Below, one piece after another: positions 1 through 13,001 of a stretch of 13,001 bases of DNA. The notes below the pieces were generated by a model that did no database searches, was not told the DNA's origin, and saw nothing but the letters and a program-made list of their open reading frames with translations. The translations under genes were made by a program, and so were the position numbers. The stretch covers positions 1 through 13,001 of the forward strand of contig JBDLKA010000092.1 of the NCBI GenBank assembly GCA_039714075.1, in the 5' to 3' direction. Position 1 is the first letter of the stretch. Each line of letters opens with the position of its first letter. Source of the DNA: Candidatus Krumholzibacteriota bacterium. Lineage in GTDB: Bacteria > Krumholzibacteriota > Krumholzibacteriia > LZORAL124-64-63.

Positions 1-372
1 GATATCCTCGAAACGGGTCAGCCAGATGTGATCGGGCATGGCCCGGTTCATCTCGTCCATCAGGTGCACCCGGAAGTAGCGGTCCCTGTCGAGCCTGGTG
101 ATGACGTCAAGACGGTCATTCAGGTCCTTGCGCTGCTGGTTCAGCCTCTTGATCTTGGCGATCTCGGGAGCCAGCCGGCGGGTTTCCGCCTCTTCCTCGA
201 CGATGATCTCTTTCAGCGCCTTGATCTGGTTGGACTGGTGTATGTACACCGCGCCGATACCGACGGCCGCGACAAACACCAGGACCAGGGGCGCGAAATT
301 TCCGACGTTGGGCAGGTTGATCCTGCTGGCGGCCGGCATTTCATCGCGGGGCAGAAGATTGATGCGAATCAT
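1..372 (-). CDS. pilN: Type IV pilus alignment protein PilN, 5' part (runs off the window's left edge)
   Basis: Manual translation from ATG at 372 (ATGA overlap with the pilM stop): MIRINLLPRDEMPAASRINLPNVGNFAPLVLVFVAAVGIGAVYIHQSNQIKALKE...MPDHIWLTRFEDI. It shows the INLLP PilM-binding motif, one TM helix, a coiled coil and a P-x-x-I-W-L motif. Open to base 1. Confidence 0.95.
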   Translation of the reverse strand, partial: MIRINLLPRDEMPAASRINLPNVGNFAPLVLVFVAAVGIGAVYIHQSNQIKALKEIIVEEEAETRRLAPEIAKIKRLNQQRKDLNDRLDVITRLDRDRYFRVHLMDEMNRAMPDHIWLTRFEDI

Positions 373-1556
373 GCTCCCACCGCCTCTCTGAGAGCCAGCC
401 CGACGCTCACCGTGAGCAGGGGACTCAGCTCCTCGGCCTCTCCCTCAGCGAAGAGGTCAGGGTTGTAATCCAGCCCGGCCAGAGGATCGGCCATCTCGCT
501 GGGAACGTTGTAGCTTTCGGCCAGGTATTCCCGCAGGCCCGGCAAGTGGGCCCCGCCGCCGCTCAGGACGATCCGGTCGATGCCGTCGGCTTCGCCGGAT
601 GTCTTGAGGTAGGACAGGCTGGGTTCGAGACCCTGGTAGATTTCGGAACCGACGGAACGAACGATGTCGGTGACCAGCTGGTCGTCCACCTCTTCGGTGT
701 GACCGCGGGCCACGTCGTGCGCCGTCTCGTAGGTCAGGCCCAACTGCTTCTGGAACTCTTCGATGAAGTGCGCCACGCCGATGGGCAGATCGCGGGTGAA
801 GTACGGCACGCCGTCCTTGACGATGTGCACGTTGGTCACCCCGCCGCCGACATCGAGCAGGGCCACGAATTCATCGCCCCGTGTTTCGGCGGCAGCCGCG
901 GCGGTGTCCTGGTCTCCTTCGTCGAAGGGGTCCAGTTCGTCCACGGAATCCATCGCGTCGTTGGACTCGGGTTCGGCGATCAGTTCGGGCAGGTTCTCGA
1001 AACCGCCCTGTCCCTTCATGTACTCCCAGGTGTTCTGGTTGGCGAAGGAAGCGACGTCGATCACCAGGGGCCGGAAGCCGGCGTCCCTGATCAACTCGGC
1101 ATGACCGAGGATCATGTCCTTCTTCGCGGCCACCAGCAGGAGTTCCATCTGGTCGGCCCCGATGTCCTCCTGGAGAATCTGGAAGTCCAGGGTGATGTCG
1201 TCGATGTCGAAGGGGACGTGCTGTTCGGCCTCCCAGTAGATGGCCTCCCTGGCGTCCTCCTCGGACATCTTGTCCATGACGATTTTCTTGACGATAACCG
1301 CCCGGCCCGCCACGGCGCTGGCCACGGGTTCATCAGGGATGCCCGCCTTTTCAGCCGCGCTGCGGATGGCCTCGATCACAAGTTCACGGTCCATGATCTC
1401 GCCGTCGACAATCGCCTCGGGCGGTAGATCAGCCATCGCGAAATGGGTGATCACCGGTCGATCGTTGGAAAGATCGAGCCGGAGGCACTTGACGACATTG
1501 GAACCGATGTCCATGCCGATAAGTGATTTTTGTTTCCCTTTAAGGAATCCGAACAT
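369..1556 (-). CDS. pilM: Type IV pilus assembly protein PilM (actin-like ATP-binding fold), about 395 aa
   Basis: IGMDIGS and LLDVGGG phosphate loops, EAEQHVPF, LLVAAKK, LSGGGA, VSVGLALR. Start moved to ATG 1556 (MFGFLKG, GAGG upstream) because the longer ORF runs across the promoter. Confidence 0.96.
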   Translation of the reverse strand: MFGFLKGKQKSLIGMDIGSNVVKCLRLDLSNDRPVITHFAMADLPPEAIVDGEIMDRELVIEAIRSAAEKAGIPDEPVASAVAGRAVIVKKIVMDKMSEEDAREAIYWEAEQHVPFDIDDITLDFQILQEDIGADQMELLLVAAKKDMILGHAELIRDAGFRPLVIDVASFANQNTWEYMKGQGGFENLPELIAEPESNDAMDSVDELDPFDEGDQDTAAAAAETRGDEFVALLDVGGGVTNVHIVKDGVPYFTRDLPIGVAHFIEEFQKQLGLTYETAHDVARGHTEEVDDQLVTDIVRSVGSEIYQGLEPSLSYLKTSGEADGIDRIVLSGGGAHLPGLREYLAESYNVPSEMADPLAGLDYNPDLFAEGEAEELSPLLTVSVGLALREAVGA

Positions 1557-1629
1557 GTCAAGCCTGCCTCGCTGTTCGTGCGTTTCTAGTGGGGAGACCC
1601 ACTCCCAATCGGGTATCCCTCGGGCCAAC

Positions 1630-1645
1630 CGCAACATGCGTGCCA
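1630..1645 (-). promoter_or_regulatory. Sigma-54 (-24/-12) promoter for pilMN...
   Basis: Minus strand TGGCACGCATGTTGCG matches TGGCACG-N4-TTGC, about 75 nt upstream of the pilM ATG. Confidence 0.82.
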
Positions 1646-1651
1646 CAATGT

Positions 1652-1678
1652 TCATCGGCCGCGCCGGGGACGCCTTGA
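1652..1678 (-). promoter_or_regulatory. Putative sigma-28-family promoter for pilM
   Basis: Minus strand TCAA-N15-GCCGATGA (TCAAGGCGTCCCCGGCGCGGCCGATGA) versus consensus TAAA-N15-GCCGATAA. Confidence 0.6.
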
Positions 1679-1786
1679 GCCCAAATCGCGGGAAATATTC
1701 GGGTATTCAGGCAAGGGGAAAATCAGGTGAAAATGCGGGTCGGGCCGGAACCGGCGGCCAGGGGGTGGAAGATTTGCCGCCGGGGA

Positions 1787-2563
1787 TCAGAATCGTGACA
1801 GGTACCAGGTGAAGATGTGGTCGCCAAACATGAGAACGACCACCGCCGCGGCGGCCAGGAAGGTCCCGAAAGGCAGCTTGGAACCACCCTCGAGGCTCCC
1901 CCGGCCCGCTGTAACTGCGTACAGGGTACCGAACAGGGCGCCGCCGAACAGAACCGCGGGCACGCCCCAGGGCCCCAGGAAAACGCCCACCATGGCCATC
2001 AGCATGACGTCTCCCCCGCCCATGCCTATCACGCCCCGGACCAGTTTGTAGCCGTACGAGACGGCCAGGACGGCTCCGGCGCCGATGGCTGCTCCCAGCA
2101 GGGCTGAAGGTAGCGCGGGATTCCCGAAAAGGGACAAAACCAACCCGATGACCATGCCCCCGACGGTCAGGGTGTGGGGAATAATCATGTGCCGCCAGTC
2201 GATCATTGCAATATCCAGCAGGATTATCAGGAAAAATGATGCAGAAAGCCCTTCCAGGGTCCACCCGAACCTCCAGATCGAGGCCAGGACGCAGGCGGCG
2301 CCGGCCAGTTCGACCAGGAGATAACGGACCGGGATGGGCGCCGAGCAGCCGCGGCAGCGTCCGCGCAGGAAAAGCCAGCTGAAAACCGGGATATTGTCGT
2401 ACCAGGCCACCGTCTTTTCACAGGAGGGACAAAAGGACCGCCCCGCCACCACGTTGAGATTGCGCGGCAGCCGGTAGATCAGGACGTTGGAAAAACTGCC
2501 GAAGCAGGCGCCCAGCCAGGCGGCCAGGAACACGGGCAGGATACCGAGGGTGGCGATCATCAT
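1787..2563 (-). CDS. pilD: Prepilin peptidase/N-methyltransferase (A24A), about 258 aa
   Basis: GSFSNVLIYRLP, Zn-binding CPSC and CRGC pairs, catalytic Asp motifs AMID and GMGGGD, LPFGTFL, multiple TM helices. Start set to ATG 2563, one base after the upstream stop, with GGAG RBS. Confidence 0.96.
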   Translation of the reverse strand: MMIATLGILPVFLAAWLGACFGSFSNVLIYRLPRNLNVVAGRSFCPSCEKTVAWYDNIPVFSWLFLRGRCRGCSAPIPVRYLLVELAGAACVLASIWRFGWTLEGLSASFFLIILLDIAMIDWRHMIIPHTLTVGGMVIGLVLSLFGNPALPSALLGAAIGAGAVLAVSYGYKLVRGVIGMGGGDVMLMAMVGVFLGPWGVPAVLFGGALFGTLYAVTAGRGSLEGGSKLPFGTFLAAAAVVVLMFGDHIFTWYLSRF

Positions 2564-2564
2564 C

Positions 2565-3278
2565 TCAAATCTCCGGGATGGGACCGATGAAATCCTTGCC
2601 GTAGATTTTCTGGATTTCAATTTTTCCGGTAATGATGTCGATCATCTTGAGAGCCAATTCCTTCATATGCGGGCTGTCAGTCGATTCGTAGAGATTTTTC
2701 CAAAGCGCCAGGGAAACGCGCTTGTCGCCGCCCTTGTAGCGGGCAAAAGCGGCAAAGCGGGATTCCTTGTCCGTGGCATCGGAACAGCGCCCGGCCATCT
2801 CGAACCAATGACCCGCCCGTTTGTAATCGTGTTCGATCACATAATAGATGAAACCGATTTGAAATGGCAGCTTGGCCTTGTCGGGGTTGGCCAGGATACC
2901 ACGCTTGAGCATCTCGATGGAACCATCTATGTCACCGAAACTGGACCAGCGGACCAGGGAGGCGAAGAAATAGGCCTCGACGAACTGCGGGTCGAGTTTG
3001 GTGATGCCGTCGATCAACAAATCGAAATAGCGCAAATCGTTTTGCCCCATGGAGTAGGCTCCATAGTACTGGATAAAGCGAAACCACAGGTAGTCGGCCG
3101 CGGCCTCACGGAACCCAAGAGTCGATTCCACCAGGAATTTCCCGGAGGGGAAGTAGAGCCTTTCCTGTTGGTCAGCCTGCTCCTGTTGGCCGTCGTACTC
3201 ACGTAGGGACAGGAAGATGACCAGGGTAAGGACCACAACGGCCAGTCCCCGGAACAGTGTTTTCGTTCGCGACTTCAT
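2565..3278 (-). CDS. Membrane-anchored helical-repeat (TPR-like) protein, myxobacterial PilG-like accessory of the pilus ABC module, 237 aa
   Basis: N-terminal basic plus hydrophobic anchor, ADYLWFRFIQYYG, LDPQFVEAY, and TPR-like helices (LKRGILANP...IGFIYY...DYKRAGHWF). ATGA-coupled to the permease. Confidence 0.7.
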   Translation of the reverse strand: MKSRTKTLFRGLAVVVLTLVIFLSLREYDGQQEQADQQERLYFPSGKFLVESTLGFREAAADYLWFRFIQYYGAYSMGQNDLRYFDLLIDGITKLDPQFVEAYFFASLVRWSSFGDIDGSIEMLKRGILANPDKAKLPFQIGFIYYVIEHDYKRAGHWFEMAGRCSDATDKESRFAAFARYKGGDKRVSLALWKNLYESTDSPHMKELALKMIDIITGKIEIQKIYGKDFIGPIPEI

Positions 3279-4051
3279 TCGCCCCGCAACTCCTTGCGCG
3301 AGAAAATGGAACCCGCCACAACAAGCAGCAGAATGGACCAGGCCAGGCTGTAGACGGTGGCCATCACCAGGTGTTCCCCCGACACGGCGGTACCGTGTAC
3401 CACCGCACCGCGCAAGTTGAACACCTCGAGGTTGGGGGTCAGGTAATATACCAGTTCGGACATCTGCCGCTGGAACACGCCGTCCTGCAGTTGGCCGAAA
3501 TCGCGGATGGACTGGCTCAGATGCCCAACGGTGAACACACCGAGCGTGAACACCGCGGCCAGAACCGGCGAAACACTTGTTGAGAAGAATACCACTACCG
3601 CGTTGATCAGGGTAAGCTCCAGAAATGTCAGATAGAATGCGCCCAGAAAGCGCAGGGAAAACGAACCCGGCGCAAGGAACAGCATCAACAGGAACAACAA
3701 TCCCATGACCGCCAGCATCGAGATCAGGGTCAGGTTCAGACCGAGGAACTTCCCGATCAGGTATTCACGGCGCCCGACTGGTTTGGACAGGATGGTCACG
3801 ATGGTCCCCTTGTCCAGCTCCTTGCGCACCATGCTGCTTCCGACAAAGACGACGACCAACAGGCCGAAGATGACCATCGAAGCCAGGCCGACATCCGCCA
3901 TGATCTTCCCCTGGGCCCCCACCGTCAGCGGCGACAGGATTGCCGTGCTGGCCAACATGATGAAACCGAAGAGGGCCACCAGGTAGAAGATCCTGTCCCG
4001 AACGGTCTCCAGAAAGGTGCTGCCCGCCAGGGTCATGATGTTGCTCGTCAT
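3275..4051 (-). CDS. ABC-2 type transporter permease (myxobacterial PilI-like), 258 aa
   Basis: About 6 TM segments, ELDKGTIVTILSKPVGRREYLIGKFLG permease loop, C-terminal FSRKEL. ATGA overlaps with both neighbours. Confidence 0.88.
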   Translation of the reverse strand: MTSNIMTLAGSTFLETVRDRIFYLVALFGFIMLASTAILSPLTVGAQGKIMADVGLASMVIFGLLVVVFVGSSMVRKELDKGTIVTILSKPVGRREYLIGKFLGLNLTLISMLAVMGLLFLLMLFLAPGSFSLRFLGAFYLTFLELTLINAVVVFFSTSVSPVLAAVFTLGVFTVGHLSQSIRDFGQLQDGVFQRQMSELVYYLTPNLEVFNLRGAVVHGTAVSGEHLVMATVYSLAWSILLLVVAGSIFSRKELRGE

Positions 4052-5109
4052 CGGCCGACCTCCCGCTTGACGGGAATTTCCCGGTTGATTTCCATGAACA
4101 GTTCCTCCAGGCAGGATCGGTGAGTCTCCAGGGATTCAACGGGAATCGCTTCTCGATGGCAGTCATTCAGAAGTTTTCTCAAATCACCCACGCTGTCTAT
4201 CTGGACGCGGACCTTGCCCTCTCCCAGGCTCCGGCATCCGGCCGGCAACCAGGTGGGATCCGTGGCGCCAAGATGCAGATCACCGGTGTAGGAAAAACCC
4301 TGGGTCAGTTCGGTCAGATCACGGACCGCAACCAGGCAACCCTCCTTGAGGACACCCACGGTGTCGGCGATCATCTCCACGTCGGGCACGATATGACTGG
4401 ACAGGATAATGGTCTTGCCTGCGTTTTTCAGGTCCATCAGCAGTTGACGGATTTCCCGGCGGCCGATGGGGTCCAGACCCGACATGGGCTCGTCGAGGAT
4501 CAGAATATCGGGGTCGCCGAGGATGGCCTGGGCCAAGCCGATCCGCTGCAGCATCCCCTTGGAAAATTTCTTCAGGCGGCGTCCAGCGAATTCGGTCATA
4601 CCAACCATGTCGAGAACTTCGTCGATGCGCGCGACCCGGCGATCCTTCGGCAAATCCAGGAGGCGGGCATAGAACTTCAACAATTCCCGTCCGGTCAGGT
4701 GCTCGAAGAAATAGGGTCTCTCCGGCAGATAACCGACACGGCTACGCGAGCTGGGATCCCGGTGGTCCATCCCCATTATGGATACCTCGCCCCCGTCGGC
4801 ATGGACCAGATCCAGGATGCAGTTGATGGTGGTTGTCTTTCCGGCCCCGTTGTGGCCGATCAGGGCAAAAACGCTGCTCTGGTTGACCGAAAACGAAACG
4901 CCCTCCACACCCCTGATGCGGCGCTTCAGGAATCCTGACCTGAACGACTTTTGGAGATCACGCACTTCCAGGACCACCGCCGGTGAACCGGCTTTTTCAG
5001 GGGACGAATCCGGTACCTGCGTCTGCACCCGGGAAGGTCGATCGACCAGGATGGTCCCCCGGGAATCACGATCCAGTGTCCTGTTTTTTACCGGCACTTG
5101 AATAATCAA
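4048..5109 (-). CDS. ABC transporter ATP-binding protein (myxobacterial PilH-like), about 353 aa
   Basis: Walker A GHNGAGKTT, signature FSKGM, Walker B ILILDEP, H-loop SSH. Start placed at TTG 5109 behind GGAGGT; the start is uncertain and downstream GTGs are possible. Confidence 0.9.
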   Translation of the reverse strand: MIIQVPVKNRTLDRDSRGTILVDRPSRVQTQVPDSSPEKAGSPAVVLEVRDLQKSFRSGFLKRRIRGVEGVSFSVNQSSVFALIGHNGAGKTTTINCILDLVHADGGEVSIMGMDHRDPSSRSRVGYLPERPYFFEHLTGRELLKFYARLLDLPKDRRVARIDEVLDMVGMTEFAGRRLKKFSKGMLQRIGLAQAILGDPDILILDEPMSGLDPIGRREIRQLLMDLKNAGKTIILSSHIVPDVEMIADTVGVLKEGCLVAVRDLTELTQGFSYTGDLHLGATDPTWLPAGCRSLGEGKVRVQIDSVGDLRKLLNDCHREAIPVESLETHRSCLEELFMEINREIPVKREVGR

Positions 5110-5178
5110 CGTCCACCTCCGGCCTAAATGGCCTGCCAAGGGCTCCAATTGGGGTTTAACTATTGTTGCGGGGGGATT

Positions 5179-5194
5179 TGCAACTAAGATGCCA
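5179..5194 (-). promoter_or_regulatory. Sigma-54 promoter for the ABC-TPR-pilD operon
   Basis: Minus strand TGGCATCTTAGTTGCA with correct GG-N10-GC spacing. It lies downstream of the pilA2 terminator and about 70 nt before the ATPase start. Confidence 0.8.
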
Positions 5195-5243
5195 AGGAAG
5201 TTGTTTTGAGGAGACACGGTCGACTATCAGGCGAACGGACATG

Positions 5244-5275
5244 AAAGAAGGGCGGCGCCAATCGCAGCGTCGCCC
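5244..5275 (-). terminator. Probable intrinsic terminator after pilA2 (imperfect)
   Basis: GGGCGACGCTG-CGAT-TGGCGCCGCCC followed by TTCTTT. The stem has one mismatch and two G-U pairs. Confidence 0.6.
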
Positions 5276-5297
5276 ATTGTCTTTTCCCTGTTTTCTA

Positions 5298-5723
5298 CTA
5301 GATGCCATTATCCAGTACGACCACTTCATCAAGCTCCCCCCAGCCATTGATTGAATATCCGGAGGGTGTGCCCGTAGCGTCATCGACGGTGACGATTCCA
5401 ACCTGCCCTGGTGTTGCGGCAAGGCCGGCGAACTGGGGTTCGGTCCAGGCTCTGGTGAAGGCGTTCTGCAGGACTCTGCCATTGTTCACTTCATTGGGCA
5501 GCAACGGCTGGATATCAGCCACCTCGTCCGAGTAAACGCCACCGTTACGGACGGCGAAATCCTCGGCCGCCAGCTGCACCGTGTGGGCAGCGCCCTTGAC
5601 CTTGGCTTCTTTGGCCCGTACCTGAAGCTTGATAAAGTTTGGGATGGCGATTGTGGCCAGGAGGGCCAGAATGACGACCACTATCATCAACTCGATCAGT
5701 GTGAATCCTTGGCTGTTTCGCAT
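5298..5723 (-). CDS. pilA: Type IVa pilin, second paralog (PilA2), 141 aa precursor
   Basis: MRNSQG|FTLIELMIVVVILALLATIAIPNF class III signal with G-1/F+1/E+5 and P22. GGGAG RBS. Confidence 0.93.
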   Translation of the reverse strand: MRNSQGFTLIELMIVVVILALLATIAIPNFIKLQVRAKEAKVKGAAHTVQLAAEDFAVRNGGVYSDEVADIQPLLPNEVNNGRVLQNAFTRAWTEPQFAGLAATPGQVGIVTVDDATGTPSGYSINGWGELDEVVVLDNGI

Positions 5724-5772
5724 TATTAATCTCCCAATCTACTCACAGGTCCGGAGGACATCCTCCATACGT

Positions 5773-5799
5773 TTTTCGGCCAAAAACCTTCCCCCTTAA
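5773..5799 (-). promoter_or_regulatory. Putative sigma-28-family promoter for pilA2
   Basis: Minus strand TTAA-N15-GCCGAAAA (TTAAGGGGGAAGGTTTTTGGCCGAAAA), immediately after the pilA1 terminator. Confidence 0.6.
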
Positions 5800-5803
5800 T
5801 ACG

Positions 5804-5833
5804 AAAAGGGCGGCGCCGTTGCCGGCGCCGCCC
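5804..5833 (-). terminator. Intrinsic terminator after pilA1
   Basis: Perfect 11-bp stem GGGCGGCGCCG-GCAA-CGGCGCCGCCC (GNRA loop) followed by TTTT. Confidence 0.85.
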
Positions 5834-5855
5834 ATCCATCGAATCGGACTGATTC

Positions 5856-6290
5856 CTACTGGCCACTGCTCAGCGTGAGAATGACAGTGTCCTTACCGTA
5901 ACCGGTAATGCTGTAACCCACAAGAACACCGCCTGCAGTGGGATCCGGAATACCCGCGATGCCGACCTGACCCGGGCTGGCAGCAACGGCGCCACCGTAC
6001 TGGGGCTCGGTCCACAGAGCGGTGAAGGCGTTCTGCAGGTTCAGACCATTGACCGGGTCATTGGGCAGCAGGGGCTGGATGTCAGCACCAAGGTCGGAAT
6101 AGACGCCATCGTTTCGAACGGCGAAATCCTCGGCGGCCAGCTGCACGGTGTGCGCGGCGCCCTTGACCTTGGCTTCCTTGGCCCGGTCCTGCATGCTAAT
6201 GAAGTTGGGGATGGCGATGGCGGCCAGAATACCAATAATAACGACCACGATCATCAGCTCAATCAGAGTAAATCCCTTACGATTCAACAC
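5856..6290 (-). CDS. pilA: Type IVa major pilin (PilA1), 144 aa precursor
   Basis: GTG start at 6290 after AAGGAG. MLNRKG|FTLIELMIVVVIIGILAAIAIPNF. Directly downstream of pilR with a sigma-54 promoter. Confidence 0.95.
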   Translation of the reverse strand: MLNRKGFTLIELMIVVVIIGILAAIAIPNFISMQDRAKEAKVKGAAHTVQLAAEDFAVRNDGVYSDLGADIQPLLPNDPVNGLNLQNAFTALWTEPQYGGAVAASPGQVGIAGIPDPTAGGVLVGYSITGYGKDTVILTLSSGQ

Positions 6291-6395
6291 ATCGGTCTCC
6301 TTCGATTCGGCCCACGTACCTCTATGTATCGTAGACCTCTTGGTGCTAGCTGCCGGGTTGTCCGGCTCTCTACCTGCCAACGGCAGTCCTTACGA

Positions 6396-6411
6396 AGCAA
6401 TGGCCGTGCCA
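6396..6411 (-). promoter_or_regulatory. Sigma-54 promoter of pilA1
   Basis: Minus strand TGGCACGGCCATTGCT, a full TGGCACG-N4-TTGCW match. This is the expected target of PilR. Confidence 0.92.
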
Positions 6412-6493
6412 TTTGCCTCTTTGTCCGTCCACATTTGCAAATACATGCATTTGTGGAACTTACATGCCAACAATTTGAACTTGCGGCATTCCG

Positions 6494-6515
6494 GTTGCAG
6501 GAATTTCCATGCAAC
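6494..6515. promoter_or_regulatory. Candidate upstream activator sequence (enhancer) for the pilA1 promoter
   Basis: Inverted repeat GTTGCA-GGAATTTCCA-TGCAAC, about 85-105 bp upstream of the -24 element. Confidence 0.5.
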
Positions 6516-6563
6516 TTGCCCATTTCCACGCCTTGCGGCGTGCGAATCAAAAGCCGGGCCATC

Positions 6564-8057
6564 CTAGACCCCGGTGGGTTCGCCGACTTTTTCACCCGTT
6601 TCCCGAATGACCGTCTCGACGGCCTCGAGCAGTTCCTCGCCGGGTACGTCCTGCTTGTCCTCGGCGGCGAAATCGTCGCCCGCACCGGAGTCCTGAAGTC
6701 CGTATTTCTTCAGTTTCCGGTACAGGGTCGATGCGTTGATGCCCAGAATTTCAGAGGTCAGCTTGCGGGCCCCGTCGGTGGCCTCGAGCACACCCAGGAT
6801 GTGGGCCTTTTCCAGGTCGTCGAGGGTGACCCGGCCACCCACGGCCAGGTTCGAGGCGGATGTTTCCGCCCCCACGCCGTTGGTCACGAACGGCGGCAGG
6901 TCCTTCAGGGTGATCCGATCGGAATCCCGAATGATGCTGGCACGTTCGATGACGTTTTCCAGTTCCCTGACATTGCCCGGCCATTCATAACCCTGCAAAG
7001 CGGTGAGGGCCTTGTCCTCGATGAGGGAGCCCAGGTTGCCCTGGTACTCGTCCGGACAGCAGCGTTTCAGGAAATGATCCACCAGCAGGGGGATGTCCTC
7101 GCTGCGTTCGCGCAGGGAGGGCAGATTCATCGGAATGACGTTCAACCGGTAATACAGGTCGGTGCGGAAGTTGCCTTCGCTGACTTCCTTTTCCAGATCA
7201 CGGTTCGTCGCCGCGATAACGCGCAGATCGACCTTGACCGGACTGCTGCTGCCCACGGGATAGACCTCCCGCTCCTGAAGCATGCGCAGAAGCTTGACCT
7301 GGATGGCGTGCGGGGTCTCCCCGATTTCGTCCAGGAAGATGGTGCCGCCTTCGGCCTGCCGGCAGAAACCGTCATGGTTCCGGTCGGCGCCGGTGTAGGA
7401 GCCCTTGATGTGGCCGAAAAGCTGGCTTTCCAGCAGGGTCTCGGGAATGGCGCCGCAGTTGATGGCCACGAACGGTCCGTCCGCCCGGGCGCTCCTATGG
7501 TGGATGGACTGGGCGATCAGTTCCTTGCCCGTGCCGCTTTCCCCGTTGATGAGCACCGTGGCGGCCGTCGCGGCGATCTTGTCCACCATCTTGTAGACCG
7601 ACCGCATGCGGGCGCTCTGGCCGATGATGTTCTTGCGCCGCTTGTTGCGCGTCAGTTCCTTCTTGAGCTTGATGTTCTCGGTCTTGGCCTGGCCCAGCGC
7701 CAGCGCGTTGCGGACCACCATCTTGATCTCGTCGTTCTTGCAATGCTTCTGCATGTAGGAGAACGCGCCCAGATTCACCGCGTCGATGGCCGACTGCTCG
7801 CTGGCATAGGCGGTCATGATGATCACCGGGGTGGTCGGGTCGATGCTCTTGATGCCCTTCAACAGCTGGATGCCGTCCATCTTGGGCATCTGGATATCGG
7901 TCATGACTACGTCGAAAGAATCCTTTTCTACGACCTGGAGGGCCTGCACTCCCGAATTGACGGTCGTAACCTCGTAGCCCTCTTTCTGCAGCAGAATCGA
8001 GAGGTACTGACACATCGATTCTTCATCGTCAACGACCAGGATCTTGCCCAGGGCCAT
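6564..8057 (-). CDS. pilR: Sigma-54-dependent response regulator (REC-AAA+-Fis HTH) PilR, about 497 aa
   Basis: ILVVDDE, phosphoacceptor TDIQMP, Walker A GESGTGKE, GSYTGA loop, Walker B FLDEI, DLYYRL, WPGNVREL, HTH LGINASTLYRKL. Start at ATG 8057 after AAGGAG. Confidence 0.92.
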   Translation of the reverse strand: MALGKILVVDDEESMCQYLSILLQKEGYEVTTVNSGVQALQVVEKDSFDVVMTDIQMPKMDGIQLLKGIKSIDPTTPVIIMTAYASEQSAIDAVNLGAFSYMQKHCKNDEIKMVVRNALALGQAKTENIKLKKELTRNKRRKNIIGQSARMRSVYKMVDKIAATAATVLINGESGTGKELIAQSIHHRSARADGPFVAINCGAIPETLLESQLFGHIKGSYTGADRNHDGFCRQAEGGTIFLDEIGETPHAIQVKLLRMLQEREVYPVGSSSPVKVDLRVIAATNRDLEKEVSEGNFRTDLYYRLNVIPMNLPSLRERSEDIPLLVDHFLKRCCPDEYQGNLGSLIEDKALTALQGYEWPGNVRELENVIERASIIRDSDRITLKDLPPFVTNGVGAETSASNLAVGGRVTLDDLEKAHILGVLEATDGARKLTSEILGINASTLYRKLKKYGLQDSGAGDDFAAEDKQDVPGEELLEAVETVIRETGEKVGEPTGV

Positions 8058-8101: not shown

Positions 8102-8128
8102 ATATCGTCAAAAAGGCGGGCCGCTTTA
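8102..8128 (-). promoter_or_regulatory. Putative sigma-28-family promoter for pilR
   Basis: Minus strand TAAA-N15-GACGATAT (TAAAGCGGCCCGCCTTTTTGACGATAT), between the terminator and the pilR RBS. Confidence 0.55.
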
Positions 8129-8160
8129 ACGCGAAATGCGAAAAACCGGCGTTCTTTTCC

Positions 8161-8188
8161 AAAAAAATGCCATCCGTGCACGGATGGC
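8161..8188 (-). terminator. Intrinsic terminator between pilS and pilR
   Basis: Perfect 20-bp palindrome GCCATCCGTGCACGGATGGC (8169-8188) followed by A and 7 T on the minus strand. Confidence 0.75.
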
Positions 8189-8240: not shown

Positions 8241-10049
8241 TCAACCGACCGGCAGCTGTTCTTCCGCCTCGACAGCGACGGCGCCTTCATCTTTTTCCGC
8301 ATCTTTTTCCGCATCTTTTTCCGCGACATTTTCCGCAACGGCCTTCTTGTTCTCTTCGAGCAGGTCCCGGTCCAGCGGCCAGCGAATCCGGAATATCGCC
8401 CCGCCGGCGGGATTGTCCTCGGCCTTGACGCTGCCCCCGTGGGCCGTGGCGATGCGCGCGACGATCGACAGACCCAGCCCCGTCCCGCCTTCCTTGGTGG
8501 TCTTGAAGGGGGAAAACAGGTCCTCGCGGATATCCGGTTCGATACCCGGACCGGTGTCCGTGACCACCAACTCGTAGGATTCGCCGTGGCCGACGAGATT
8601 CAACCCGATTCTCAACTCACCGGCATATCCCATTGCTTGACAGGCGTTTATCGCCAGATTCAGGGTCATCTGGGTCAATTGCCCGGGGTCCGCGACCACG
8701 GCCATGTCCGCCGGCGCGACATCACAGAACACCCGCACACGGCCATCCTTGGCCGCCACGTGCTGATTGATCTGCAGCGATATCTGTTCCCGGAACTCCT
8801 GAGCGCCGAAACACGCCTTCCTGGCCGCGGGCATGCGTGAGTAGGCCAGAAAGTCGTTGATGATCGTGTTGACCCGGGCGCTCTCCTTGAGCACCAGCCC
8901 CAGCAGCTGGTCCTGGTATCCTTCCAGCTCCACTTCGCCGGCCAGGATTTCGACGCTGCCCCGGATGCTCGCCAGGGGATTGCGGATTTCGTGGGCGATG
9001 CTGGCGGCCAGCTCGCCGATGGCGGCCAGGCGGTCGGATTCCCTGATCCGCGCGCTCATTTCCTTTTCGCGGGTCAGGTCGGTAAAAATCGTGATGGCGC
9101 CGATGATCCGGCCCCCCGGTGCGGTCACGTGGTTGACGTTCAGGCCCAAGGGGGTGCGGGAGCCCCGGCGGTCGATGTGGATCTCCCCGCGCGACACCGT
9201 GGCTCCGCCGCGGGCGACCGGAAGAATGACGTCCGCCAGCTCCTGCATGCCCTCGGCCATCACCATGGTGATGTCCCTTTTCAAAAGTTGGGACGGCGTC
9301 ATTTGCAGAACATGACAGGCGGAGGGATTGACCCGGGTGATGATGCCCCTGCTGTTGACGGTGATCAGCCCGCTCTGGATGTTGTCCAGGATATTGCGTA
9401 CCTCGCAGCGGGCATGCATGGCCATGCTGTGGCTGCGCGCCTGGTCCTTTTTGCGGGCCGCCAGCCGGCGGGCCAGCCCGCTGCTGATCATTCCCGTCAC
9501 CAGGAACACGGCCATGTGCAGGGCGGTGACCAGGACGGGCCAACCCTGCAGGTAGTTCAGGGTGGACTCGGTCCCGGTCAGCAGCCAGCCCAGCGCCAAC
9601 CCGAAGTGGCCGCCTCCGACCAGGATGGCCGCGGTGCCCGCGATGGCCATGGACCAGCGGGCGTCCAGGTAATAGGCCCCCAGCATGATCGGCACCAGGA
9701 ACACCAGGGGAAACGCGGAAAATGGTCCTCCGGAAAAGTGAACCAGCAGCCCGATGCACAACGTGTCCGACGCCAGCTGCACCGCCAGCAGCACCCGCCG
9801 GGGCGCCCGCGCCATGTAGGCCGCCCAGGCCACCGCAATGGAGGTGTAGAGAAGACCAAGGGACCCCATCAACCCGGAGGTCGACACGTCCGCGGAACCG
9901 AAATAGTAGACGAAGAGGGAGGAAACGGTCAGAAAGGCGGCCGAAATCAGCCGCCAAACCAGGAGTCTTGCGTTGGGATCACGGCCGCCGGGCCCGACGG
10001 AATTCGTCGGAGCCCGGCGGCTGCTATTCGGTGCGGTCAATCCGCTCAC
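8241..10049 (-). CDS. pilS: Membrane sensor histidine kinase PilS (TM - PAS-like - HisKA - HATPase), 602 aa
   Basis: Multi-TM N-terminus, PAS-like ILDNIQSGLITVN...VNPSA, H-box AHEIRNPL, N-box NLAINA, DTGPGI, FSPFKTTK, GTGLGL. GTGA overlap with the pilC stop. Confidence 0.9.
   Translation of the reverse strand: MSGLTAPNSSRRAPTNSVGPGGRDPNARLLVWRLISAAFLTVSSLFVYYFGSADVSTSGLMGSLGLLYTSIAVAWAAYMARAPRRVLLAVQLASDTLCIGLLVHFSGGPFSAFPLVFLVPIMLGAYYLDARWSMAIAGTAAILVGGGHFGLALGWLLTGTESTLNYLQGWPVLVTALHMAVFLVTGMISSGLARRLAARKKDQARSHSMAMHARCEVRNILDNIQSGLITVNSRGIITRVNPSACHVLQMTPSQLLKRDITMVMAEGMQELADVILPVARGGATVSRGEIHIDRRGSRTPLGLNVNHVTAPGGRIIGAITIFTDLTREKEMSARIRESDRLAAIGELAASIAHEIRNPLASIRGSVEILAGEVELEGYQDQLLGLVLKESARVNTIINDFLAYSRMPAARKACFGAQEFREQISLQINQHVAAKDGRVRVFCDVAPADMAVVADPGQLTQMTLNLAINACQAMGYAGELRIGLNLVGHGESYELVVTDTGPGIEPDIREDLFSPFKTTKEGGTGLGLSIVARIATAHGGSVKAEDNPAGGAIFRIRWPLDRDLLEENKKAVAENVAEKDAEKDAEKDEGAVAVEAEEQLPVG
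8288..8335. repeat. 12-bp in-frame tandem repeat in the pilS 3' end
   Basis: (CATCTTTTTCCG)x3 at 8288-8323 plus a degenerate CGACATTTTCCG. Encodes AENV-AEKD-AEKD-AEKD. Confidence 0.95.
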
Positions 10050-11257
10050 CCCACGACGCTGGACATCTTGAACATCGGCAGATACATGGCGATCAACATA
10101 CCGCCGACCATGGTGCCCATAAGCACGATCATCACCGGTTCGATGGCCGCGGTCAGGGCGTCGACCGCCGCGTCGACCTCGTCATCGTAGAAGTCGGCGA
10201 TCTTGGACAGCATCTCGTCCAGGGCGCCCGTCTGCTCACCGATCCCGATCATCTGCACGACCATGGGCGGGAACACGCCGCTTTCCCTCAGGGGGGCGGC
10301 GATGGTATCACCCTGGGCGATGCTCTTCCCGGTCTCGTCGATGGCTTCCTGGATCACCCGGTTGCCCGCGGTCCGGGACGTGATTTCCAGTCCCTGGAGA
10401 ATGGGCACACCGGAACCGATCAGGGTTCCCAGTGTCCGGGTGAATCGCGCCACCGCGGACTTCAGCAGGACCGTTCCGATGATGGGGATCTTCATGCCCC
10501 AGCGGTCGGTGTTACGACGGCCGGTGACGGTGTTGCGGTACTGCTTGAAGGCCCAGCCGAAGCCGATCGAGCCGCCGAGCAGCGCCCACCAGTAACCCCG
10601 GATGAAAGTCGAGATGTTCATCACGAACTGCGTCGGACCAGGCAACTCGCCGCCGAAGTCCGAGAACATCTTGGCGAACACCGGAATCACGAACATCAGC
10701 ATGAAGATGCAGGCGCCGCCGGCCACCGCCAGTACGATGGCGGGATAGGTCATGGCACCCTTCACCTTGCGCTGCAGGGCGTCGGCCTTTTCCAGGAACA
10801 CGGCCAGACGGCTGAGGATGACGTCGAGGATACCCCCGGCCTCACCCGCGGCGATCATGTTGACGTACAGGTCGGAAAAGATCCGGGGATGCTTCTCCAG
10901 GGCCTCGGCCAGGGTCGAGCCGCCTTCAACGTCGGCCGTCACCTTCAGGACGACCTCCTTGAAGTGGGGCTTTTCCAGCTGCCGGCCCAGGACGTCGAGG
11001 CACTGGACCAGAGGCAGACCGGCGTTGACCATGGTGGCGAACTGCCGGGTGAAGACCGAAAGGTCCTTGACCGAAACTCCCTTTTTCTGCAGGAATTTGA
11101 TCTGGATGTCCTTCGGCTTCTTCTTGATCGAAGTGATCACGATCCGGCGTTTGCGCAGGTATTCCCCCACGGCCGCCTTGTCGGTCGCTTCGTATTCGCC
11201 GTTCAGGGTTTCGCCTTTGGCGGTCTTCCCTTTCCAGAGATATGTCGTGGCGCTCAC
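10046..11257 (-). CDS. pilC: Type IV pilus inner-membrane platform protein PilC (GspF family), about 403 aa
   Basis: FTRQFATMVNAGLPL, AGEAGGILD, KVKGAMTYP, GEQTGALDEML, IEP, MYLPMF. Start placed at GTG 11257 just after the pilT stop. Confidence 0.96.
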   Translation of the reverse strand: MSATTYLWKGKTAKGETLNGEYEATDKAAVGEYLRKRRIVITSIKKKPKDIQIKFLQKKGVSVKDLSVFTRQFATMVNAGLPLVQCLDVLGRQLEKPHFKEVVLKVTADVEGGSTLAEALEKHPRIFSDLYVNMIAAGEAGGILDVILSRLAVFLEKADALQRKVKGAMTYPAIVLAVAGGACIFMLMFVIPVFAKMFSDFGGELPGPTQFVMNISTFIRGYWWALLGGSIGFGWAFKQYRNTVTGRRNTDRWGMKIPIIGTVLLKSAVARFTRTLGTLIGSGVPILQGLEITSRTAGNRVIQEAIDETGKSIAQGDTIAAPLRESGVFPPMVVQMIGIGEQTGALDEMLSKIADFYDDEVDAAVDALTAAIEPVMIVLMGTMVGGMLIAMYLPMFKMSSVVG

Positions 11258-11273
11258 GGGATTTTCCCCTTCC

Positions 11274-12350
11274 TCAAGTCGGCATGCCGGCTGGTTCACC
11301 GAGCATGGCCAATAGTTCCTGGGCGTCGCTGGTTCGGCCCAGGGCTTCATCCAGAGTGATCCATTTGTTCAGCACCGCGTGGTGCAAGGACTGGTTCATG
11401 GTCTGCATGCCGTGCTTCTGCCCGGCCTGCATCAGACCGTAGATCTGGTGCGTCTTGTCGTCGCGGATCATGGCCTTGATACCCGGCGTGCACACCATGA
11501 TCTCCATGGCCATGCACCGGCCGCCGCCGCGGGCCCGCGGGATGAGCTGCTGCGTCAACACACCGCTCAGCGAGAACGCCAGCTGCGACCGCACCTGGTT
11601 CTGCTGTCCCGGAGGGAACACGTCGACGATACGGTTGATGGTCTCGAAGGTGCTGTTGGTATGCAGCGTAGCCAGCGCCAGGTGACCGGTTTCGGCGATG
11701 GTCAGGGCCGCACCGATGGTCTCCTTGTCGCGCATCTCCCCGATCAGGATCACGTCGGGATCCTGGCGCAGCACGTACTTCAAGGCATCGGGGAAGCTGT
11801 GGGTGTCGCTGTTGACCTCACGCTGGTTGATGATGCAGTTCTTGTGCTGGTGCACGAACTCGATGGGGTCCTCGATCGTGATGATGTGACCCTTTTTCTG
11901 GGTGTTGATGGTGTCGACCATCGTGGCCAGGGTTGTTGATTTACCGCTGCCGGTGGGGCCGGTGACCAGGATCAGTCCCTGCTGCTTGGTAATGAGCTCA
12001 CGGCAGATCGGCGGCAGCCCCAGTTCCTCGAAGGTGTTGATCTCGTAGGGAATCTGGCGAATGGCCAGGGCCGTCACACCGCGCTGCTGAAACACGTTGG
12101 CACGAAAACGGCTGATGCCCTGCACCCCGAAGGAGAAGTCCAGTTCCTTGTCGTTCTCGAAGCGCTTCTTCTGCTCTTCGTTGAGGATACTGTAAGCCAG
12201 ACGGCGTGTTTCATCGCCGGTCATGACCGGGAACTGCGAGGTCACAACCAGACCGTCGACCCGGTATTGGGGCGGCACACCCGCCGTCAGGTGGAGATCG
12301 CTGGCACCCTTGGCCACCATCTCTTCGAGAAGCTCGCGCATTCCTATCAC
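11274..12350 (-). CDS. pilT: Type IV pilus retraction ATPase PilT, 358 aa
   Basis: ASDLHL, RFRANVF, Walker A GPTGSGKST, TIEDPIEF, LRQDPDVILIGEMRD, AETGHL..TLHT, GMQTM. GGAGG RBS. Confidence 0.97.
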   Translation of the reverse strand: MIGMRELLEEMVAKGASDLHLTAGVPPQYRVDGLVVTSQFPVMTGDETRRLAYSILNEEQKKRFENDKELDFSFGVQGISRFRANVFQQRGVTALAIRQIPYEINTFEELGLPPICRELITKQQGLILVTGPTGSGKSTTLATMVDTINTQKKGHIITIEDPIEFVHQHKNCIINQREVNSDTHSFPDALKYVLRQDPDVILIGEMRDKETIGAALTIAETGHLALATLHTNSTFETINRIVDVFPPGQQNQVRSQLAFSLSGVLTQQLIPRARGGGRCMAMEIMVCTPGIKAMIRDDKTHQIYGLMQAGQKHGMQTMNQSLHHAVLNKWITLDEALGRTSDAQELLAMLGEPAGMPT

Positions 12351-12398
12351 TATATCTCTCCTCCGACTTGTCGTGCGGTTGAGCGGTTCACCGTTCCC

Positions 12399-13001
12399 CT
12401 ATTCGGCCACGGCGGTTTCGCGCAACACTTCCTCGACTGTGGTGACACCCTTGGCGACCTTTATCAGGCCATCCTGCCGCAGGGTCAGCATCCCCTGCTT
12501 GATGGCCAGTTTCTGGATTTCCGAAGTCGGCGCCCGGTCCAGGATCAACTCGCGGATCTCCGGCGTGATGGGCATGACTTCGTAAAGACCCTGTCGTCCG
12601 GAATACCCGGAACCGTTGCACTGGTCACAGCCCTTGCCCTTGTAGACACTGGTGCCGGGTTTCAGGGCAAGATCCTTGAGTGCTTCTTCGGACAACTTGA
12701 GCTCTTCCTTACAACTATTACAAACGCGCCTGACCAGGCGCTGGGCCATGATCAGAACGGTCGATGAAGCGACCAGAAACGGTTCAATGCCCATGTCGAT
12801 CATCCGGTTGATCGTGCTCGGGGCATCGTTCGTATGCAGGGTCGACAACACCAGATGGCCCGTCAGGGCCGCTTTGGTGGCGATGCCACCGGTTTCCAGG
12901 TCACGAATCTCACCAACCATGACGATATTCGGATCCTGGCGCAGGAACGCCTTCAGGGCCGAAGCAAAAGTCAGGCCCACGTCGTCACGGACCTGGACCT
13001 G
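12399..13001 (-). CDS. pilB: Type IV pilus extension ATPase PilB, C-terminal part (starts beyond the window)
   Basis: Frame open to the window edge: [54 protein letters not shown], Zn tetracysteine CNSC/CDQC, GYSGR. Confidence 0.96.

Follow-up and report, generated by a model that had tools for sequence, protein, structure and literature searches.

Organization of the pilus locus

The window, i.e., the whole stretch of 13,001 nucleotides that was analyzed, carries a type IVa pilus gene cluster in the Myxococcus/Geobacter-style order pilB-T-C-S-R-A1-A2-H-I-G-like-D-M-N (Table 1). The names of the pil genes are presumed from Pfam matches and the known gene order of such clusters. The nearest relatives bearing a name are Candidatus Krumholzibacteriia. 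PilB, PilT, PilC, PilD, and PilM are all encoded alongside both pilins, and PilS has a PilS-like domain with six transmembrane segments (6TM). A short acidic repeat (AEKDAEKDAEKD) is present at the C-terminus of PilS (window 8241-8330, minus strand).

Table 1. Genes and regulatory elements of the window and of contigs C19 and C1 of the host genome.
Feature	Position	Strand	Details
pilM and start of pilN	1..1562	(-)	PF11104
Sigma-54 site before pilM	1630..1645	(-)	covers predicted sigma-28 start
Sigma-28 site before pilM, strong	1652..1679	(-)	CTCAAGGC-N12-GCCGATGA; 20.2 bits
ABC ATPase, ABC-2 permease, membrane protein without Pfam match, prepilin peptidase pilD	1787..5217	(-)	
Sigma-54 site heading the pilH-pilI-pilG-like-pilD unit	5179..5194	(-)	
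Terminator-like hairpin behind pilA2	5250..5275	(-)	
pilA2, second type IVa prepilin	5298..5723	(-)	PF07963 above cut-off
Sigma-28-type site of pilA2	5773..5800	(-)	ATTAAGGG-N12-GCCGAAAA; predicted start 5766-5767
Intrinsic terminator behind pilA1	5804..5833	(-)	hairpin 5833-5808, 11 G-C pairs, T run, -28.7 kcal/mol
pilA1, type IVa prepilin, presumed major pilin	5856..6290	(-)	PF07963 38.6 bits, cut-off 21.2
Sigma-54 (-24/-12) site of pilA1	6396..6411	(-)	TGGCAC-N5-TTGCT; predicted start about 6385
pilR, sigma-54 activator (receiver, AAA+, HTH)	6564..8057	(-)	Pfam domains
Sigma-28 site before pilR	8102..8129	(-)	TTAAAGCG-N12-GACGATAT; 11.1 bits
Terminator-like hairpin between pilS and pilR	8169..8188	(-)	
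pilS, pilC, pilT, 3' part of pilB	8241..13001	(-)	rest of pilB on contig C19
Sigma-28 site before pilB	C19:1349	(-)	13.3 bits
fliA	C1:36321-36995		269.8 bits, TIGR02479 cut-off 189.6

Properties of PilA1 and PilA2

The pilA1 gene begins with a GTG codon and encodes a leader of 6 aa and a mature product of 138 aa, and pilA2 encodes a mature product of 135 aa; neither contains a cysteine residue. Both prepilins have a short class III leader, a cleavage site between G and F, and E5, and PilA2 retains P22 and what appears to be a full globular domain as well. A previous inspection of the DNA without database searches, termed here the sequence-only reading, had described two adjacent intact type IVa pilins with 74 identical residues among the first 91 of the mature proteins, and an ungapped alignment gave the same count. 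The C-termini, described there as divergent, do show some difference, but less than claimed, as they can still be aligned (68% over 141 aa).

Within the first 91 codons, pilA1 and pilA2 differ by 24 silent and 17 replacement changes, indicating that the duplication is old. The variable region of pilA2 is 0.58 identical to that of pilA1 in the same genome which, together with the silent differences in 24 of 91 codons, argues against a recent conversion in the host genome. Signs of recombination between the paralogues were found in two of seven pairs, none of them in the host genome and one being a possible assembly artefact. The variable-region DNA identity to the genome's own pilA1 was 0.79 at one locus of G001 and 0.93 in G002, where the two pilin genes lie on separate contigs and misassembly is possible, compared with 0.62 across genomes. 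G001 contains two different pilA1-pilA2 loci (L077, L017) and may represent mixed strains. In G050, three tandem pilin genes are present (L079), the first of which is frameshifted in the assembly.

The N-terminal helix of PilA1 is near-invariant across the class, and that of PilA2 is paralogue-specific (ILALLATIAIPNFIKLQ), the changes I13L, G14A, I15L, and A18T in the membrane helix being conserved in PilA2 relative to PilA1. A structural model of PilA2 of low confidence (pLDDT 62, too poor for a fold search) predicts a helix from residue 3 to 53 and three strands; sequence matches to solved pilins span the helix only. A C-terminal disulfide is common in type IVa pilins, though not universal. 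None of 14 pilins of the genus contains a cysteine, so this disulfide is lacking in all of them. A function of the pili in conductance was considered and set aside, the aromatic content being only 6.5-6.7%. Elsewhere in the host genome, a lipoprotein-like gene (L088; C98:8760-9270, minus strand) encodes a protein that lacks the pilin helix and is similar to the globular domain of pilins over its last 70 residues (E 4e-7).

Promoter elements of pilA1 and pilA2

The perfect sigma-54 promoter motif that had been proposed for pilA1 is indeed present and is one of 13 perfect sites genome-wide. The pattern GG-N10-GC in a TGGCAC/TTGC context was found at 6411-6396, 5194-5179, and 1645-1630. The terminator behind pilA1 is the first-listed of 25 in the window, and a hairpin is present in all eight orthologous pilA1-pilA2 intergenic regions. 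Upstream of the sigma-54 site, the region 6440-6530 (minus strand) is AT-rich with repeated TGCA words and is a candidate region for PilR binding. The leader of pilA1 (window 6291-6385, minus strand) can form several hairpins (-31.6 kcal/mol); its first 50 nt appear near-identical across the genus, and a GGA at a hairpin is a candidate CsrA site.

For the evaluation of sigma-28 sites, 32 flagellin upstream regions of relatives were used as training set, which contained no pilus genes. A motif search with two 8-mers, a spacer of 10-13, and 150 random starts yielded CTCAAGTT-N12/13-GCCGATAA as the best two-box motif, which is the sigma-28 consensus given in PMC8325347. The scoring matrix is based on 23 of the 32 regions; nine were dropped for low score or position.

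Upstream of pilA2 and behind the strong terminator, the proposed element TTAA (5799-5796)-N15-GCCGAAAA (5780-5773) was found as described, and a motif search likewise agreed that this region has no sigma-54 motif. The site deviates by one mismatch per box from the TAAA-like -35 and the GCCGATAA-like -10 consensus, with the boxes 15 nt apart. With the flagellin-trained matrix it scored 9.3 bits, and 6.8 bits when flagellins of the same genus were left out of the training; it is the weakest site of the set. As 878 sites genome-wide reach at least 9 bits and the loose pattern with one mismatch per box occurs 101 times, the single pilA2 site is unremarkable when taken alone. A score of 9.3 bits was reached by 0.9% of 4000 random windows of 135 nt, and the shuffle p value was 0.013 (300 shuffles), with values of 0.007-0.017 in five of six pilA2 loci tested.

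Conservation of the motif in relatives had been set beforehand as a test that could refute the claim, and boxes and spacing were kept in the eight orthologous loci. These loci, from seven genomes, scored 9.3, 10.3, 9.2, 7.0, 0.8, 8.7, 9.5, and 7.5 bits, i.e., seven of eight reached 7 bits or more, the exception being G003 with 0.8 bits. The spacer comprised 12 nt in all eight loci and was variable in sequence; column conservation was 0.83 for both boxes versus 0.66 for the spacer and 0.53 for the downstream region. In seven of seven loci of the genus, pilA2 is followed by a hairpin and then by a sigma-54 site. The -35 regions of pilR (8102-8129) and pilA2 (5773-5800) are alike within the genus; judged from this likeness, the pilA2 promoter may be a captured copy of the pilR promoter.

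Sigma-28 and sigma-54 sites of the other pil genes

The sigma-28 site upstream of pilM is the strongest of the window and ranks sixth among 8.1 million positions. It was found in 17 of 17 genomes with upstream sequence from the host's own family of uncultured bacteria (9.2-20.2 bits; 300 shuffles each; two truncated loci left out), whose members are not independent of each other, so that this and the following family counts overstate the support. In the same 17 of 17 genomes, a sigma-54 site follows the sigma-28 -10 box at a distance of exactly 6 nt. The pilM upstream regions of 11 genomes of other families reached a sigma-28 maximum of 6.2 bits.

All 21 family genomes carry a sigma-28 site before pilB (10.9-27.1 bits); in other families, such a site was found in one of five genomes with and none of eight without fliA. 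All 13 of these other-family genomes have a sigma-54-like site (≤ 2 mismatches) at pilB. A degenerate sigma-54-like match is still found in 7 of 21 family genomes, in three of them nested over the -35 box. For the pilB-pilT-pilC-pilS operon of the host genome, the motif search detected the sigma-28 site and no sigma-54 site. Across families, the pilB upstream region presents the steps of an apparent rewiring: sigma-54 only, dual, nested, and sigma-28 only. At L331, L332, and L333 (before pilB) and at L247 (before a pilin gene), the sigma-28 -35 box consists of the inner bases of a sigma-54-like 16-mer. At L351 (G027, a member of another family), pilB is preceded by a sigma-28 site of 19.7 bits with a sigma-54 site 23 nt upstream of it, which is possibly a separate gain.

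At pilR, a sigma-28 site of at least 7 bits was found in 18 of 20 homologues with ≥ 72% identity versus 1 of 44 more distant ones. The arrangement, a terminator followed by a sigma-28 site, is the same as at pilA2. For the minor-pilin operon, located on contig C53 in the host, 19 of 30 loci have a sigma-28 site of at least 9 bits and 27 of 30 a sigma-54-like site, the wrong gene having been picked in one of the 30 rows.

The pilH-pilI-pilG-like-pilD unit is headed by a sigma-54 site that the sequence-only reading had missed. It was present in 37 of 37 close homologues, none of which had a sigma-28 site of 7 bits upstream of pilH; this region therefore served as internal negative control. The prepilin peptidase gene pilD follows a terminator and a promoter with a sigma-54 site only. 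A 12.2-bit sigma-28 site before pilD (2651) was discarded, as it falls within a coding region and showed no conservation in five loci of the same genus or in most others. High-scoring intergenic sigma-28 sites are also present at C3:57009, C6:38714, C71:10784, and C31:20727 of the host genome; judged from their first residues only, the genes behind them appear to encode a CheY-like receiver and other signalling-type proteins.

FliA, RpoN, and the loss of flagellar genes

The absence of a sigma-28-family gene had been named as a finding that would speak against the proposed promoter, and the host genome encodes one FliA protein above the family cut-off. The next-best five matches, all RpoD/RpoS-like, scored below the FliA cut-off and were dismissed as readers of the sigma-28 sites. 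A single rpoN gene is present, plus the gene for the enhancer-binding activator PilR. The PilR loop of the host genome reads GSYTGA, which is rare (4 of 85 rows), GSFTGA being found in 76 of 85 (duplicates included); functional activators have a loop of the GAFTGA type.

Of the 91 genomes of the family, 87 have a fliA match, among them all 55 good ones, and 84 have a flagellin match, among them 53 of the 55 good ones. The host genome (G000) gave no flagellin match. On its contig C1, no match was found to the relatives' genes for rod, hook, ring, filament, and cap, and the flanks are contiguous. It is unlikely that flagellin was merely unassembled, as four gene blocks are absent between intact flanks on one contig. 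The remnant at C1:9200-37200 (L075, L076, L089) comprises the export gate, the motor, flhF, fliA, fliW, csrA, and a weak flgM match. The flgB gene of the host is an 86-aa stub. In G013, flagellin and export genes are lost from contig C16 (L285, L286, L291) and matches to fliF, fliG, motAB, fliM, fliN, flhF, and fliA are kept; this loss is independent of and deeper than that of the host. Both G000 and G013, good genomes with separate deletions, thus have no flagellin, yet kept fliA and the sigma-28 sites of pilB and pilM.

Distribution of sigma-28 and sigma-54 pilin genes in the family

The comparison of upstream regions covered 54 family genomes with 101 pilin genes, selected for similarity of the encoded proteins irrespective of their promoters; about nine further genomes with matches lie outside this sample. 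Fifty pilA1-type genes had a sigma-54 site, and their sigma-28 scores were all ≤ 6.3 bits. A sigma-28 site of at least 9 bits was found for 29 pilin genes in 27 genomes, and only one of these genes also had a sigma-54 match. Three further sigma-28 pilins lay outside the 101-gene filter. Of the 36 family genomes for which at least two pilins were examined, 27 combined a sigma-54 pilin with a sigma-28 pilin.

In genomes from outside the genus, the gene of the sigma-28 pilin usually lies at another locus or 600-730 nt further downstream. Among the matches from the genus itself there is no further sigma-28 pilin, whereas sister genera have one. Among 31 distinct gaps between directly tandem pilin genes, six were of the pilA1-pilA2 type, 24 others scored ≤ 4.5 bits, and one was too short to score. 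The low-scoring gaps include those of the family members G013, G016, G022, and G052, from which we conclude that a sigma-28 pilin is not required family-wide, and that before the second pilin of G006, which is cut by the contig end and has no sigma-28 site.

In a quick tree of 44 rows, seven of eight pilA2-type genes formed a clade among the pilA1 genes of the genus, and a common origin of all sigma-28 pilins was rejected on the same rows (AU test, p = 0.003). Taken together, these two results point to pilA1 as the probable source of the tandem pilA2 gene, either by descent or by overwriting; pilA2 probably took a role that is filled by another gene in sister genera.

A predicted FliA-then-PilR/sigma-54 cascade

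The promoter motifs suggest that pilA1 with its sigma-54 site and pilA2 with its conserved sigma-28-type site represent the late and the early tier of one FliA-then-PilR/sigma-54 cascade, a model that we consider rather probable. In the first tier, FliA would transcribe the pilB-T-C-S, pilM, and minor-pilin operons together with pilR and, at a low level, pilA2. PilS would then activate PilR, and phosphorylated PilR together with sigma-54 would transcribe pilA1, the pilH-I-G-D unit, and the dual promoters. PilA2 might serve as an early or basal subunit, present in smaller amount because of its weak sigma-28 site, and PilA1 as the regulated bulk subunit, with the PilA1:PilA2 ratio set by PilS/PilR. 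At pilM, where the predicted sigma-28 start falls within the sigma-54 site, the two polymerases would be expected to exclude each other, and the operon would be handed from one tier to the other. A second sigma-70 or ECF promoter at pilR or pilD would loosen this hierarchy and speak against the cascade. The low score of the pilA2 site, the relatedness of the genomes compared, and the rare loop of the host's PilR also weigh against it.

The proposed sigma-54/sigma-28 split of the pilins was thus supported by the motifs, their conservation, and the presence of fliA, whereas the switchable alternative filaments proposed with it appear less likely than a hierarchy. Such an either/or switch, in which a sigma-28 programme leads to PilA2 pili and an independent sigma-54 programme to PilA1 pili on the same machine, could draw on the fact that the sigma-28 sites span a near-full kit (pilB, pilM, minor pilins, pilA2), that the interlocked sites at pilM suggest mutual exclusion, and that Thermus makes two pili from two pilins (PMC7203116). 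However, pilR and pilB-T-C-S of the host carry only sigma-28 sites, so that the sigma-54 arm looks FliA-dependent, and pilD lies behind a sigma-54-only promoter and a terminator, the additional site before pilD not being conserved. As the sigma-54 activator and the motors seem to need FliA and the peptidase sigma-54, we regard this switch as unlikely; an ordered cascade fits better with a pilR gene and motor genes that look sigma-28-driven. A chance origin or decayed relic of the pilA2 motif, with pilA2 expressed only by read-through from pilA1, would agree with the many comparable sites in the genome (878 of at least 9 bits, 101 loose matches), the orthologue with 0.8 bits, and the tandem pairs of other genera that have a hairpin and no promoter. 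We judge it very improbable in view of the conserved boxes and the fixed 12-nt spacer of variable sequence in eight loci, the shuffle p values of 0.007-0.017 in five of six loci, and the terminator-then-site layout shared with pilR; moreover, the genus has no other sigma-28 pilin among its matches where sister genera have one.

The role of PilA2 itself could also be a different one. Instead of building filaments, it might be a low-level modulator or reserve copy that is held in the membrane and tunes PilS, or that acts as recombination donor like Campylobacter flaB. The weak sigma-28 site, the conserved substitutions I13L, G14A, I15L, and A18T of the membrane helix, the sensing of pilin by P. 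aeruginosa PilS via membrane contacts (PMC6058289), and the raised variable-region identity to the own pilA1 in G001 (0.79) and G002 (0.93) are in line with this idea. On the other hand, PilA2 has kept the cleavage site, E5, P22, and apparently the full globular domain, there was no sign of recent conversion in the host genome, and the G002 pair is possibly misassembled; a non-filament role therefore seems to have a small chance of being correct. It concerns only the role of PilA2 and is compatible with the cascade.

A wider scenario, which we put forward as a tentative one and hold to be doubtful in its entirety, is that control of the type IVa pilus in this family shifted from sigma-54 to an inverted cascade, FliA first and sigma-54 second, in which dual promoters interlock; that a sigma-28 pilin was recruited on at least two occasions; and that two pilins form filaments that are ordered in time or zoned. 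FliA, FlgM and, in the host, a shaft-less export core would have outlived the flagellum as master switch of the pilus. If the FliA-then-PilR/sigma-54 cascade holds true, the classical PilR/sigma-54 switch is subordinate to the late sigma factor of flagella, opposite to the order known from flagellar genes, and paralogous pilins are assigned to two tiers of one type IVa pilus cascade. This would also provide a testable reason for the retention of FliA in genomes without flagellin.

Comparison with known systems

Control of pili by sigma-28-family factors, a sigma-28/sigma-54 split of flagellins, and cells with two pilins are known already; the split cascade was not found reported. Full-text searches of open papers gave neither a sigma-54/sigma-28 pilin pair, nor pilus regulation in Krumholzibacteriota, nor a FliA-above-PilR cascade with split pilins. 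Pseudomonas stutzeri pilAI/pilAII is another two-pilin pair. Thermus PilA4/PilA5 (PMC7203116) and Streptococcus sanguinis PilE1/PilE2 (PMC5389465) are similar in that two related pilins per cell form separate or mixed filaments, but the accessible text of these papers describes no sigma-28/sigma-54 split.

As in Rubrobacter and Actinoplanes with WhiG/FliA-type factors, sigma-28-family promoters head several pil units here; in Rubrobacter, they have been confirmed by transcriptional start sites (PMC8325347, PMC12871210). These species are Actinobacteria, however, and the accessible parts of the two papers describe neither a sigma-54/PilR tier nor split pilins. In Bdellovibrio, too, FliA reaches pilin genes (flp1/flp2, Tad) and paralogous pilins are under different control, but these are type IVb/Tad pilins, and flp4 and the type IVa pilA gene are described as FliA-independent (PMC5430801). 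The SigJ-SigF cascade of Nostoc punctiforme is comparable in that a late tier of a sigma cascade supplies the major pilin; it differs in consisting of cyanobacterial SigJ and SigF, with no sigma-54 and no FliA in the part of the report that is accessible (PMC6495340).

With the PilS-PilR systems of P. aeruginosa and Geobacter, the locus shares a pilS-pilR pair adjoining a sigma-54 pilin gene and a PilS-like 6TM domain (PMC6058289). In these organisms there is one major pilin, pilB is reported to be sigma-70-dependent, and no FliA tier above pilR is described in the accessible text (PMC6058289). For Campylobacter jejuni, PMC5126078 describes the tandem flagellin genes flaA/flaB, which are split between sigma-28 and sigma-54 and for which recombination between the copies is reported. 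The locus resembles this system in having tandem structural paralogues divided between the same two sigma factors. It differs in that the paralogues are pilins and that the presumed major copy is under sigma-54 here and under sigma-28 there. In C. jejuni, sigma-54 stands higher in the hierarchy, whereas here the gene for the sigma-54 activator bears a sigma-28 site, i.e., the order appears reversed.
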